DNA of 64,000 bases from Dehalococcoidia bacterium (lineage in GTDB: Bacteria; Chloroflexota; Dehalococcoidia; Lucifugimonadales; Australimonadaceae). The translations under genes were made by a program, and so were the position numbers. The stretch lies in the NCBI GenBank assembly GCA_965242755.1, contig OZ251500.1:1921339-1985338 (forward strand), written 5' to 3'. Every line of letters starts with the position of its first letter. The stretch's first letter is position 1. The notes beneath the pieces are model-generated. The model saw nothing but the letters and a program-made list of their open reading frames with translations. It did no database searches and was not told the DNA's origin. Positions 495-61,516 of the stretch are shown in pieces.

Positions 495-960
495 ACCCTA
501 CCCTCTCCCAGAGGGAGACCTTTGCATAACTTCCGGCGGCCAGTAGGTTCCCGCTTTCGCGGGAATGACGGTCGTGGAGGGGTAGGTTCCCGCTTTCGGG
601 GGCGTGGCGCCGGGGGATGGCTTGGGGACGGGGCGCGTGGTGCCCGTCTCATGGCGCTGCGCGGCGGGTGGGTTCGCGGCTGCGCGGTCAGGGCGGTAGG
701 TTATGCAAAGGTCTCCAGAGGGAGAGGGAATCAAACTGAGCGCCTATCGTCCTCTCCTCTGGGAGAGGACGCTGCGAAGCAGCGGGTGAGGGTTCGGGGG
801 ACGGAACCACCCTCATCCTAACCCTCTCCCAGAGGAGACCGTTGCACCCCAATGCCGCCCTGCCCGCGTAGGCGGGAACCCAGTCGGCGCGATAGCGCTT
901 GCCTGACCCCCTCTCCCGCTGGGCGGGAGAGGGATGGGGTGCGGGTGGGAGCCGTGACCC
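495..960. repeat. Intergenic cluster of the window-wide palindromic/MITE-like repeat modules
   Basis: The secA-thiL spacer is built almost wholly from four module types: CCCTCTCCC-N3-GGGAGAGGG hairpins, GGTTCCCGCTTTCGCGGGAA hairpins, CCCGCGTAGGCGGGAA hairpins, and GGAGACCTTTGCATAAC ends. The same modules recur in at least 14 other spacers of this window. Confidence 0.75.
514..716. mobile_element. MITE-like non-autonomous element (203 bp) with perfect 17-bp terminal inverted repeats
   Basis: GGAGACCTTTGCATAAC at 514-530 is the exact reverse complement of GTTATGCAAAGGTCTCC at 700-716. The interior carries the CCCGCTTTCGCGGG hairpin modules. The element has no coding capacity. Confidence 0.5.
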
Positions 961-9707: not shown

Positions 9708-9886
9708 CGCGGGGGGATAGCGCAACCCTGCGCGGCGACCGCCCTGACCGCGCAGGCGCGAATCTATGCGGCGCGCAAGCGCCGTTCCTACCTCCCCAAC
9801 GCCCCGACCTGGCCGCGAAAGCGGGAACCTACTGGGCTTAATTAGACACCCTTGAGATACCATATCGGCGAACGGAGGACGACCTT

Positions 9887-15540: not shown

Positions 15541-15784
15541 GCGCCCCCGCGCCCGCCGCTTCCGGTCGTTCTCGTGAAGGCGGGAGCCCTCACCCCGTCC
15601 CTCTCCCGTTTGACGGGAGAGGGGGGCGGATGGCGCCCGCCGCGACGCTCCGCGCTCCCGGTAGTAATCTCTGTCCGCGATGCCCACGGCGCGTTCCTCC
15701 TCCGCGTCGGTTCGCCTCGTTCCGCGCGAGCGAACGCGCATGTCGCTATAGTATCCGATTGCGCCGCTTTGCGCTCCGCCCATA

Positions 15785-15892
15785 GAGACCTTTGCATAAC
15801 CTGTCGCCCTGCCCCGCGTAGGCGGGAATCCATAGCGGAGCGAAGCGCTCCCACGTAAGCGCTCGTCATTCCCGCGTAGGCGGGAATCCAGG
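15785..15892. repeat. Composite repeat-family copy (one TIR-type end plus two CCCGCGTAGGCGGGAATCC hairpins)
   Basis: GAGACCTTTGCATAAC, then CCCGCGTAGGCGGGAATCC, then GCGCTCCCACGTAAGCGC, then CCCGCGTAGGCGGGAATCC. Confidence 0.65.
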
Positions 15893-16080
15893 AACCCGCC
15901 TAGGCTGCCGTAGGCATTCGCCCTTCAGCGCCCCATCGTCGTCTACGCAGTTATGCTCCTCTTCTACGAAGAGGAGGAGGCGCTTGCGCGGCGAGCTGGA
16001 TTCCCGCCTACGCGGGAATGACGGTAGTCCCCGCGCCGCTTGCGGCGCGCGGCGCCGCTGGTGTACGCTTGCGCTCCGCT

Positions 16081-19377: not shown

Positions 19378-19486
19378 GGGGCGCGCCCCAACTCCCCTCT
19401 CCTTCTGGGAGAGGGGCCGGGGGTGAGGGCGGTTCCGCGCAGGGCGGCGACCCTCACCCGCCGCTACGCGGCTGCCCTCTCCCGGA

Positions 19487-19630
19487 GGAGACCTTTGCAT
19501 AACTCCCGGGCCCCAGTAGGTTCCCGCTTTCGCGGGAACGACGGGGCGCTTACGTAGGAGAGGAGCGGCGCTCCGCGCCGCCTGGATTCCCGCCTACGCG
19601 GGAATGACGGTAGGTTATGCAAAGGTCTCC
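19487..19630. mobile_element. MITE-like element (144 bp) with perfect 17-bp TIRs, followed by a partial second copy up to 19712
   Basis: GGAGACCTTTGCATAAC at 19487-19503 is the reverse complement of GTTATGCAAAGGTCTCC at 19614-19630. The interior is the reverse complement of the units at 51834-51954 and 60027-60140. The right half is repeated at about 19646-19712. Confidence 0.55.
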
Positions 19631-19806
19631 AAAGGGAGAGGGCGGGAGCGGCGCTCCGCGCCGCCTGGATTCCCGCCTACGCGGGAATGACGGTAGGTTA
19701 TGCAAAGGTCTCCCTCTGGGAGAGGACGGCGCGCAAGCGGGTTCGGGGAGCCTGCTCGCGCCCGGCCCTCCCCCAGATTCTGTTAAGATGAGCAGAGGGA
19801 GACGCT

Positions 19807-35367: not shown

Positions 35368-35823
35368 GGCGTCTCCGCAGGGGGGCGTTGGCCTAATCCT
35401 AGCCTAAGATGCGCCGAGCGGGGGCGCAATGTCAACGGGGGCGTGTCCGCATTCGGCGGCGCAAGGCACCGCCCTCTCTTGCCGCCCTGCCCGCGCAGCC
35501 GCGAACCCACCCGCCACGCAAACGCCACGAGACAGGGCGCAACGCGCCCCATCCCCAAGCCATCCCCGCCAACCACTCCCTCCCCGCGAAATCGGGAACC
35601 TACTGGCCACTCCGGCGCGCAAGCGCCGCCCCCCCCCTCTCCCTCTGGGAGAGGGCAGCCGCGCAGCGGCGGGTGAGGGTTGCCCACGCGCGCGGTTGCC
35701 CCCAATGCCGCAACTGTGACATCCGCCCCTTGCGCCGTCCCCTTGCCCATCCCTACGATGGGGCAATGACAATCCCAAGCCCAACCCGGCAAGCGCGGCG
35801 CCGAACGAGAGGCGCGGCGGGCA

Positions 35824-43296: not shown

Positions 43297-43692
43297 GGGC
43301 GCGGGGCAACCCTCGCCCCTGCCCTCTCCCAGAGGGAGAGGGAGTCGCGGCGGCTGGGAGAGGGAGTCGGAATTGGTTTGGTTCCCTCTCCTTCTAGGAG
43401 AGGGCTAGGGTGAGGGCGGTTCCTTCTCCCCAATGGGGGGGCGTGGCGCGCCCGTCGCGGCGCTGTCGCGCCGCCTGGATTCCCGCCTACGCGGGAATGA
43501 CGGGACCGAGGGGGTGGGTTCCCGCCTACGCGGTCAGGGCGGCGGCAATGTCTCCCGGGCGTGGCGGGCGGGGCGCAGGGAGGGCGCGGGGCGCGGGCCC
43601 GCCGGGTATGAGAAAGCCCCCGCCGATGTCGGCGGGGGCTTTCGTTGCGTCCGTATGGGGCGAGACGCGGAGGCTAAGGACGCGCGGGGGGG

Positions 43693-50276: not shown

Positions 50277-50641
50277 CTGTCCTGCGCCCCTGATCCCGGG
50301 GCTCGCTTGCCTAACTATACCACGCCGCCGCCCGCAACGCATAGGGCGCAAGACGCGGCAGGAGGCGCTATTGTCCACCCTGCGCCCCGCATTATGCAAT
50401 AGGATGCGATGGGCAGTTCCGGCCAAACCTCGCTCTCCCCGCGCAAACGCGCAACTCCCTTTCTATCAGCGCGGCGCGGCGTTGTCAACGCCGCAGGCGC
50501 GCAACCTTCCCGCCAATCCTAACACGCCGCGCAGTCTAGCGCCAACTCCGAACCCGCGCGGCTGCCTTTCCCGCCATTCCTAACCCGCGCGGCTGCCCTC
50601 TCCCGCCATTCCTAACCCTCACCCTGCCCTCTCCCAGAGGG

Positions 50642-50716
50642 AGAGGGAATCGGGCGCGGCCCTCTCCGCCAGAGGGAATCGGGCGCGGCCCTCTCCGCCA
50701 GAGGGAATCGGGCGCG
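50642..50716. repeat. 29-bp tandem repeat, about 2.6 copies
   Basis: AGAGGGAATCGGGCGCGGCCCTCTCCGCC occurs at 50642-50670 and 50671-50699, with a partial third copy. Confidence 0.85.
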
Positions 50717-50735
50717 CATGCGCCTGATCCGCGCA

Positions 50736-51833: not shown

Positions 51834-51954
51834 GGAGAACTTTTGCATAACCCGCCGCCCTGCCCGCGTAGGCGGGAATCCACAGGCGGCGCGGAGCGCC
51901 GCTCCTCTCCTACGCCTGCGCCTCGCCCTGCCCGCGAAAGCGGGAACCTACTGG
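51834..51954. repeat. Composite repeat-family copy (degenerate TIR end plus internal modules)
   Basis: GGAGAACTTTTGCATAAC, then CCCGCGTAGGCGGGAATCC, then GGCGGCGCGGAGCGCCGCTCCTCTCCTAC, then CCCGCGAAAGCGGGAACCTACTGG. It is collinear with 60027-60140 and 61318-61419. Confidence 0.7.
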
Positions 51955-51985
51955 GCGCGGCGCGGACGGGGTATGATTATTCCTG

Positions 51986-55204: not shown

Positions 55205-55331
55205 CCGCCCCGCCTCCGCGCCGCTCCCTCCTAACGTAAGCGCCCCGCCCTGCCCGCGTAAGCGCGAACCCCCTTCTTGCCGTCATTCCCGCGTAGGCGG
55301 GAATCCACTTGGGGCTTTGACTGGACGCCCG

Positions 55332-56771: not shown

Positions 56772-56848
56772 CGGGGTGTGGCGCAGCCCGGAAGCGCACC
56801 TGCATGGGGTGCAGGGGGTCGTTGGTTCAAATCCAATCACCCCGACCA
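56772..56848 (+). tRNA. tRNA-Pro (anticodon GGG), CCA encoded
   Basis: Hand-folded cloverleaf: acceptor CGGGGTG/CACCCCG, D stem GCGC/GCGC, anticodon stem CCTGC/GCAGG with loop ATGGGGT, T stem GTTGG/CCAAT with loop TTCAAAT, then the discriminator A and CCA. Confidence 0.9.
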
Positions 56849-60026: not shown

Positions 60027-60140
60027 AGGAGACCTTGCATAGCCTGCCGCCCTACCGCGAGCGGGAATCCAAGCGGCGCTCCGCGCCGCTCCTCTCCTCG
60101 TAAGCGCTATCGTCATTCCCGCGAAAGCGGGAACCTACTA
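60027..60140. repeat. Composite repeat-family copy
   Basis: GGAGACCTTGCATAG, then CGCGAGCGGGAATCC, then AGCGGCGCTCCGCGCCGCTCCTCTCC, then CCCGCGAAAGCGGGAACCTACTAG. Confidence 0.7.
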
Positions 60141-60171
60141 GCGCAGGAGAGGCCGCGCGCGCCCTCCGGCG

Positions 60172-61302: not shown

Positions 61303-61317
61303 AGGATTCTCCTAATC

Positions 61318-61419
61318 TGCCCGCCCTGCCCGCGTAGGCGGGAATCCATAGCGGCGCGCAGCGCCGCTCCTCTCCTACCTGAGCGCATCGCCCTGCCCGC
61401 GAAAGCGGGAACCTACTGG
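61318..61419. repeat. Composite repeat-family copy lacking the TIR end
   Basis: CCCGCGTAGGCGGGAATCC, then AGCGGCGCGCAGCGCCGCTCCTCTCCTAC, then CCCGCGAAAGCGGGAACCTACTGG. Confidence 0.7.
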
Positions 61420-61441
61420 ACTGAGCGAGACGATAAACGGC

Positions 61442-61516
61442 TGGAGCGGGCGATGGGATTCGAACCCACGACCCTCTGCTTGGGAAGCAGATGCTCTACC
61501 CCTGAGCTACGCCCGC
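61442..61516 (-). tRNA. tRNA-Gly (anticodon CCC), CCA encoded
   Basis: The reverse complement folds as acceptor GCGGGCG/CGCCCGC, D stem GCTC/GAGC, anticodon stem TCTGC/GCAGA with loop TTCCCAA, T stem GTGGG/CCCAT with loop TTCGAAT, then the discriminator T and CCA. Confidence 0.9.

Follow-up and report, generated by a model that had tools for sequence, protein, structure and literature searches.

The intergenic repeats in a 64,000-nucleotide stretch of the genome of a Dehalococcoidia bacterium (phylum Chloroflexota; contig OZ251500.1, positions 1921339-1985338; hereafter, the window) are best read as three known systems nested in one another. [quoted passage not shown] A probability of roughly 0.85 is assigned to this reading. 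The window belongs to a single contig of 3,162,299 bp with 67.5% G+C, and ~4% of the genome is estimated to be missing from the assembly. An earlier sequence-only reading of the window described one high-copy, modular, MITE-like family that lay outside the described kinds. The high copy number and modular build are found genome-wide, but the single family is replaced by three systems, each with a described counterpart: the ends are of the ISNme1/ISPg1/BrickBuilt type, the modules are of the NTS/SRM type, and the abutting hairpin is of the BoxC/PIT type.

A MITE and an IS5-family element with common ends

The 17-mer GGAGACCTTTGCATAAC that bounds the repeat units is present in the window at 514-530 (+), 700-716 (-), 19487-19503 (+), 19614-19630 (-) and 19697-19713 (-), with a one-mismatch copy at 15784-15800 (+). 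These six matches compare with 0.01 expected from shuffled sequence. The whole genome contains 346 copies with at most two mismatches, 166 of which are exact, and a profile made from the 144-bp units gives 968 non-overlapping matches that cover 86 kb, or 2.7% of the genome. When each forward end is joined to the next reverse end, 69 pairs lie less than 400 bp apart: 63 span 143-145 bp and six are variants of 139-388 bp. The 143-145-bp units are 83-99% identical to their own consensus, and the MITE has no coding capacity. Full copies number about 65-95 in this genome, mostly of 144 bp.

A further 21 end-bounded units are longer (1184-1217 bp). Seventeen of these, at 1212-1217 bp, share the 16-17-bp ends of the MITE and have a gene for a protein of 325 aa. 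Against NF033581 (IS5 family; cut-off 140) this protein reaches 302 bits, and it is matched by PF01609 and PF05598 too. The transposase reading frame is intact in at least 11 of the 17 copies. Five copies are ~100% identical to one another and a further pair is likewise identical, and by this measure the IS looks recently active. All 17 copies are located outside the window, in agreement with the earlier observation that no transposase gene lies within it, and they supply the IS with matching ends that had been proposed as a target of search. With annotated IS5-family genes on plasmids the transposase shares no more than 45% identity, and with multicopy genes in Dehalococcoidia metagenome-assembled genomes (MAGs) it shares 59-63%.

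The end itself is of a published type: GAGACCTTTGCA is the end of ISNme1 and, with small changes, that of ISPg1 and of the BrickBuilt MITE of Porphyromonas gingivalis (PMC4596501). A literal text search of a collection of papers with the end sequence gave no match. Similarity between the MITE and the IS is confined to 17-22 bp at each end, and the MITE is therefore not a 1214-bp IS that has lost its inner part. To judge from their sequence, the 144-bp units belong to the MITEs that have ends in common with the parent but an unrelated interior. The four units of 1184 bp were also considered as the parent IS, since 110 and 39 bp of the MITE are matched at their ends, but their inner 1036 bp is an IS of the IS30 family. 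In the proposed mechanism, the IS5-family transposase would act from outside the window and mobilise the non-autonomous MITE in trans through the common 16-bp ends.

Insertion into the loop of a triplex-type hairpin

Both arms of a hairpin (left arm CCCTCTCC, right arm GGAGAGGG) flank 78 of the 98 end-bounded elements. With boundaries placed at GAGACC...GGTCTC, 54 of the 98 elements (IS and MITE pooled) have the same five bases on either side, and MITE and IS belong to the same class of target duplication, a feature that the sequence-only reading had suggested looking for. The commonest duplications are CTCTG, CAGAG, CAGAA and TTCTG, and the left and right copies co-vary at the outer positions of the duplication (Fisher p = 4e-5 and 7e-7). 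Where the insertion site is not the canonical hairpin, clean 5-bp repeats are found (for example, CATCG, CAGCG, AACTC, TGCTG and CGCAG), often between short inverted sequences. Based on this evidence for a 5-bp duplication, the true inverted repeat is 16 bp, GAGACCTTTGCATAAC, and base 17 of the terminal inverted repeat as first described is the last base of a C-NNN-G target. Models with 17-bp ends and a 3-bp or 4-bp duplication were weighed as well. The 3-bp model fits 60 of the 98 elements, yet it leaves unexplained both the co-variation of base 17 with the opposite flank and the non-canonical sites, and the 5-bp model is preferred.

Empty versions of the target are abundant: CCCTCTCC-N5-GGAGAGGG is found 188 times in exact form and ~470 times with relaxed arms. 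The loops of these empty hairpins are CAGAG, CTCTG, TTCTG and CAGAA, the same pentamers as the commonest duplications, and a third block, GGGTGAGGG, is present within 25 nt in 175 of the 188 exact cases. By their motif, these hairpins are of the BoxC/PIT type, for which an intrastrand triplex is predicted. In the window, removal of the element at 515-715 together with one CAGAG regenerates CCCTCTCC-CAGAG-GGAGAGGG. The MITE at 19488-19629 is flanked by CCCTCTCC-CGGAG and CAAAG-GGAGAGGG, a degraded duplication. A tandem duplication elsewhere on the contig contains a filled site (1435020) and its empty paralogue (1435925); the insertion, at the same loop position, is what distinguishes the two. 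The earlier observation that the ends abut a CCCTCTCCC hairpin is thus borne out, with the hairpin being the insertion target and lying outside of the element.

The related Dehalococcoidia IS elements, at 60-63% identity, have the same end core and are likewise positioned in hairpin loops, between short inverted sequences that vary in sequence. This result may suggest that the transposase recognises a palindrome or hairpin structure over a fixed sequence. The transposase would then insert in the loop or centre of palindromes, overwhelmingly CCCTCTCC-CNNNG-GGAGAGGG, and the five loop bases would be duplicated. Units derived from the BoxC-type hairpin are also seen in short tandem arrays with a period of ~31-35 bp, at 50560-50720 of the window and at 101075-101165 of the contig (for example, repeated ccctctccgccagagggaatcgggcgcgg), and triplex-type hairpins therefore amplify locally too.

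NTS/SRM hairpins as cargo and as target of a second IS

The interior of the MITE resembles a pair of NTS/SRM hairpins placed around a GC hairpin, an assignment made by comparison with published motifs. One hairpin, modA (CGTCATTCCCGCGTAGGCGGGAATCCAG), has one mismatch to the Neisseria Transformation Sequence CGTCATTCCCGCGMAVGCGGGAATCYRG (PMC11893778), and the other, modC, has two. With the NTS, SRM and dRS3 search patterns from the same paper, 775 SRM matches are found in the genome compared with 27-51 in five simulated genomes. The NTS with at most one mismatch occurs 403 times (0 simulated), and the dRS3 pattern has 988 matches over both strands, or ~494 sites (0-2 simulated). Hairpin orientations are balanced (418 versus 436) and are uninformative on replication-strand bias. 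The cumulative GC skew rises near-monotonically with local reversals and lacks a two-arm shape, such that origin and terminus cannot be placed from skew.

Three genes for GIY-YIG proteins of ~103 aa (PF01541, 60 bits) are present, one at 773 kb and two in tandem at 1434-1436 kb, and all three have NTS-like hairpins both upstream and downstream. Thousands of single-domain GIY-YIG proteins of ~95 aa share 70-75% identity with the protein, some of which are labelled proteobacterial (Rhodocyclaceae), and this similarity suggests transfer between phyla. The hairpin pair of the MITE would correspond to cut sites of this putative Ssn-family GIY-YIG single-strand nuclease. The ssn cassette is tandemly duplicated at 1433980-1435950 of the contig with a period of ~1035 bp. 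In each tandem copy, an array of 3-5 modC hairpins lies upstream, and the downstream hairpin is joined to a single end of the IS5 type; the BoxC hairpin in which the repeat terminates is empty in one copy and filled in the other.

Hairpin pairs also occur as doublets without IS ends. The GC hairpin of the doublet spacer (GGCGGCGCG..GCGCCGC) is found as well after the stop codon of ssn copy 3, and an origin of the doublets as gene-less cassettes is proposed with moderate confidence. A derivation of the doublet spacer from the 3' trailer of ssn was rejected, as the best alignment covers merely the hairpin and the GC hairpin that follows it.

The hairpins are themselves the target of the IS30-family element. 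This IS is 1036 bp long, encodes a 336-aa transposase (NF033563, 223 bits) and is present in 22 full copies, none of them in the window (examples on the contig: 1638084-1639119, 616367-617402 and 1508946-1509981). All 22 occupy an identical position in an NTS/SRM hairpin (…GCGGGAA | IS | GGAAYC…). The four 1184-bp units are MITEs with this IS inside their hairpin. The right end of the IS30-family element (…GAATCCAG) mimics the 3' tail of the hairpin.

Distribution in relatives and alternative explanations

Hairpins of the SRM type are present in 18 of 18 sampled species of the genus and in 22 of 22 sampled genomes of the class, and their stems vary between genomes by paired changes (CCCGCG/GCGGG, CCTGCG/GCAGG, CCAGCG/GCTGG). 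The IS ends, in contrast, are patchy: 306 copies are counted in this genome, 234 in one congener and 0 in four others, and across the class, 17 of the 201 genomes sampled contain the end. The four congeners with zero IS ends (G005, G011, G013 and G017) still have 66-165 hairpins as well as doublet-length matches. Because the hairpins are ubiquitous and the ends are patchy, the hairpins are considered old residents and the IS and MITE a lineage-specific expansion. This expansion would have acquired a resident hairpin doublet.

The same distribution speaks to the proposal of a single family, in which all doublets and solo hairpins without IS ends would be decayed remnants of the IS5-type MITE. 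Copies with one end or with degenerate ends do exist (for example, window 834-898, 51838-51956 and 60029-60150), and ~240 profile matches are one-ended forms. The right end accompanies modA in 95 copies and both hairpins in 67, and the left end accompanies both hairpins in 39. However, once overlaps are removed, 93 full units are outnumbered by 224 doublets without IS ends and 383 solo hairpins (270 modA and 113 modC), and the doublets have sharp borders at CCAGTAGG and GAATGACGG. The hairpins also persist in congeners that lack the ends and flank the GIY-YIG genes. A single family is accordingly improbable.

The hairpins and the IS ends do recur together. In four other Dehalococcoidia genomes, MITE-sized end pairs have an SRM-type hairpin of a different variant just inside one end. 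Nine of 18 end-carrying genomes (4 genera, 3 families) have the arrangement GAATGAC-N0-30-end, in which the SRM hairpin is positioned inside the end at a distance of 0-30 nt; a reversed-pattern control gives no match. Both the hairpin-to-end junctions and the stem variants differ between genomes, which suggests either repeated independent capture or insertion of hairpins at a preferred site beside the end; the recurrence could also reflect how abundant the hairpins are. In G004, a relative of the same genus, head-to-tail arrays with a ~83-bp period, made of a modA hairpin and a right IS end, are observed at C1:669409-669978 and at other sites, a form not seen in the genome of the window.

These recurring junctions in 9 genomes would fit a model in which the GIY-YIG (Ssn-type) system moves all units and the IS5-like ends are passengers or chance neighbours. 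The hairpin-gene-hairpin layout is IS-like, as considered in the discussion of PMC11893778, and in two ssn copies the 3' hairpin is joined to one IS end. End-bounded units nevertheless have the 5-bp duplications and the hairpin-loop target of the full IS, and doublets without ends are not found in that target context. Ssn is not known to have transposition activity, and movement by this system is less probable still than the single family.

Slimmer again is the chance that the units do not move and instead serve a function, for instance in termination, protein binding or recombination, for which selection or gene conversion keeps them. A single strand of the unit is predicted to fold very stably (-53 kcal/mol, z = -9), with a stem formed from the two ends and three inner hairpins, and ~85% of unit bases are non-coding by a crude gene map. 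Against this idea stand duplications at non-repeat sites, identical IS copies at different loci and a range of 0 to 306 copies within one genus. Inspection of the sequence reveals no T-run after the hairpins, and for this reason the role of a canonical intrinsic terminator is unsupported.

Finally, a repetitive extragenic palindromic (REP) family or REPIN spread by a RAYT (Y1 transposase) already looks refuted: although modC is REP-like (GTAGG followed by the palindrome TTCCCGC-N4-GCGGGAA) and the doublets resemble BIMEs or REPINs, the search for a RAYT that the sequence-only reading had proposed gave no PF01797 match in the genome at E <= 0.01, whereas the same search matched 6 of 14 control genomes, and the units conform to the NTS/SRM pattern as published and lie on both sides of GIY-YIG genes.

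Several points weigh against the reading of three nested systems. Some of the related IS elements have boundaries that fit 4 bp. The IS5 group usually duplicates 4 bp, and 5 bp is unusual. Many flanks are identical since the target is a repeat, and some insertions counted as independent could be duplicated copies of one. The empty-site comparison proposed earlier yielded no orthologous empty site in the relatives, the nearest of which are ~81% identical and non-syntenic. The flanks of the 19487 copy map to separate places in G004, the nearest relative (81% identity), and an exact scan of metagenome contigs with the joined flanks of the 514 copy gave 0 matches. As orthologous empty sites were not found, the case for recent mobility rests on the duplications, the identical IS copies and the paralogous empty sites. 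For the nuclease, the best relatives in the PDB are UPF0213 proteins with an E value of 3.5e-4 only, and membership in the Ssn family (cd10448) is putative.

Repeat copies in the window

The features of the window are collected in Table 1. The raw profile matches in the window number 16 and fall at or near most of the coordinates listed by the sequence-only reading; they include the two pieces 515-571 and 582-716 of the variant MITE. Both of the complete units it described, at 514-716 and 19487-19630, are end-bounded by exact 17-mers, with the above-described correction of the inverted repeat to 16 bp. Their interior is not the fixed string of modules that was claimed. The 514-716 copy, a variant of 203 bp, has a longer spacer and its second hairpin is decayed, and the proposed middle module GGCGCTCCGCGCCGCTCCTCTCC has a single exact occurrence in the genome, compared with 519 exact (879 with at most two mismatches) for the first module and 186 exact (343) for the third. 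Among the other copies listed, those at ~33600, 35636, 43323, 43385, 46675 and 50628 are CCCTCTCC-N5-GGAGAGGG hairpins and belong to a separate family.

The statement that the family fills the intergenic DNA was too strong, as it makes up ~11% of non-coding DNA in the window and genome alike (by the same crude map). Its prediction of spurious open reading frames holds: in the six-frame translation of the genome, the peptides LCKGL (264) and MQRSP (193) recur as the translated element end. The motif is not confined to the window, and the other circumstance that would have undone the claim of novelty, ends of a catalogued IS or MITE, largely applies at the level of IS family and end type, with the transposase itself standing apart from its annotated plasmid-borne relatives. 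In an Rfam search of the window, two tRNAs alone reach gathering scores, one near the last feature of Table 1 and a second at 56772-56845.

Table 1 Repeat features of the window, in window coordinates
Feature	Position	Strand	Description
Target hairpin, left side	501..513		Arm CCCTCTCC (501-508) and duplication copy CAGAG (509-513)
Variant MITE	515..715	+	Element proper 201 bp; 514-716 adds one target base per end. Order: 16-bp end, NTS-like hairpin (modC type, 543-570, minus), degenerate second modC, long spacer, decayed modA, 16-bp end
Target hairpin, right side	716..728		Duplication copy CAGAG (716-720) and arm GGAGAGGG (721-728)
Empty BoxC-type hairpin	751..768		CCTCTCCTCTGGGAGAGG; third block downstream
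Decayed one-ended copy	834..898	-	Degenerate end GGAGACCGTTGCA and modA-type hairpin; triplex-motif arm CCCTCATCCTAACCCTCTCCCAGAG before it
Doublet core without IS ends	9738..9845	-	Profile positions 17-125
One-ended copy	15785..15892	-	One-mismatch end AGAGACCTTTGCATAAC at 15784-15800 and hairpin core; NTS fitting the published SRM pattern at 15864-15891
Solo modA (NTS) hairpin and partial spacer	15964..16027	+	SRM-pattern match 15996-16023, minus
Empty BoxC-type hairpin	19396..19414		Third block GGGTGAGGG downstream
Canonical MITE	19488..19629	+	142 bp including 16-bp ends (144 as first counted); 97% identical to genome consensus. Order: end, modC hairpin, GC hairpin, modA hairpin (NTS 19582-19609, minus), end
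Half copy	19645..19712	+	Profile positions 76-144: GC hairpin, modA, right end; then CTCTG-GGAGAGG
Empty BoxC-type hairpin	35636..35654		Listed earlier as a single module
Two empty BoxC-type hairpins	43323-43341, 43385-43403		Third blocks present
Solo modA (NTS) hairpin	43457..43504	+	SRM-pattern match 43475-43502, minus
Empty BoxC-type hairpin	50628..50646		Third block upstream; short tandem array of hairpin-derived units after it
Old copy	51838..51956	-	Degenerate end GGGAGAACTTTTGCATAAC and full doublet core
Decayed doublet	55218..55313	-	SRM-pattern match 55281-55308, plus
Old copy	60029..60150	-	Degenerate end AGGAGACCTTGCATAGC and doublet core; SRM-pattern match 60111-60138, plus
Doublet core without IS ends	61311..61424	-	~20 bp from tRNA gene (61445-61516, minus)

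Implications

The three repeat classes and the two IS elements occupy ~3% of the genome and give rise to hundreds of spurious open frames. Gene calling in Dehalococcoidia MAGs would benefit if such repeats were masked. The more than 750 SRM motifs and the three ssn genes extend the putative Ssn system to Chloroflexota, and the genome offers a natural setting in which to study the role of an Ssn nuclease outside of naturally transformable pathogens. Carriage of Ssn hairpins as MITE cargo would provide a route of spread that is independent of the nuclease gene. A further idea, that IS5-type MITEs and Ssn-target hairpins are functionally coupled in Dehalococcoidia and are not chance neighbours, draws on the recurring hairpin-to-end junctions and is tentative and on balance doubtful. 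If it were true, MITEs would disperse Ssn cut sites, or a hairpin or Ssn nick would aid MITE movement; SRM hairpins, BoxC triplex motifs, the MITE and the hairpin-specific IS30-family IS would form one interacting network of mobile elements, within which a clade of IS recognises DNA structure instead of sequence.

Comparison with known systems

No concept is changed by these results, which provide a well-resolved case of nested known elements. The end type, the module class and the target class were already known. What appears to be new, and is undescribed in the literature found, is the nesting of Ssn hairpins as MITE cargo and the use of triplex loops as an IS target.

The closest parallels to the MITE are ATR of Neisseria meningitidis and BrickBuilt (MITEPgRS). 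ISNme1, an IS5-family element, is the proposed parent of ATR (PMC4596501). As in those systems, the first 12 end bases (GAGACCTTTGCAAAA) are identical to ISNme1, the interior is unrelated to the parent IS ("type II" MITE), and intergenic copies in the tens are accompanied by a full-length IS5-family partner in the same genome. The present case differs in its phylum (Chloroflexota), in its GC-rich composition and in an interior that appears to be a pair of Ssn-target hairpins. It further differs in the strict insertion into triplex-motif loops with a 5-bp duplication, and in a transposase no more than 45% identical to annotated plasmid-borne relatives.

Insertion at a fixed position in an abundant intergenic palindrome, seen here for 78 of 98 IS5-type and 22 of 22 IS30-family elements, is shared with IS1397, ISKpn1, ISPpu9/10, ISRm22 and ISNm1106, which target REPs, and IS5 is one of the five families reported to do so (Tobes and Pareja 2006, PMC1525189; PMC12288879). 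In contrast to these, the target here is a hairpin of the BoxC/PIT triplex type and not a RAYT-type REP, and the derived MITE has the same specificity. The use of other palindromes by related Dehalococcoidia IS elements again suggests recognition of structure.

The target hairpin has a layout, CCCTCTCCC-loop-GGGAGAGGG-N3-GGGTGAGGG, that is nearly identical to that of E. coli motif no. 1 (CCCTCTCCCTGTGGGAGAGGGCCGGGGTGAGGGC) of the BoxC/PIT/TMECO group, for which triplex formation has been shown and 23 copies are listed (Holder et al. 2015, PMC4666352, Table 1). No association of triplex motifs with transposons or transposases is reported in that study. Here, the loop that separates blocks 1 and 2 is occupied by an IS or a MITE in 78 motifs, and the 188 exact and ~470 relaxed copies are far above the number in E. 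coli.

For the cargo, the comparison is with NTS/dRS3 and SsnA (Chenal et al. 2025, PMC11893778). The single mismatch of modA to the NTS consensus and the small single-domain GIY-YIG genes with hairpins on both sides, a layout described for ssnA, are points of likeness, and the 775 SRM matches place this genome in the class with more than 300 SRMs defined in that work. Mention of Chloroflexota, MITEs or IS5 was not found in its main text. The hairpins of the present genome, unlike those described, are also cargo of an IS5-type MITE and the exclusive target of an IS30-family element; the nuclease activity is putative. Finally, the repeats resemble the BIMEs of enterobacteria and the NIMEs of Neisseria as a modular mosaic of small intergenic repeats, but here the mosaic has no RAYT and arises in part from nested, site-specific insertions.

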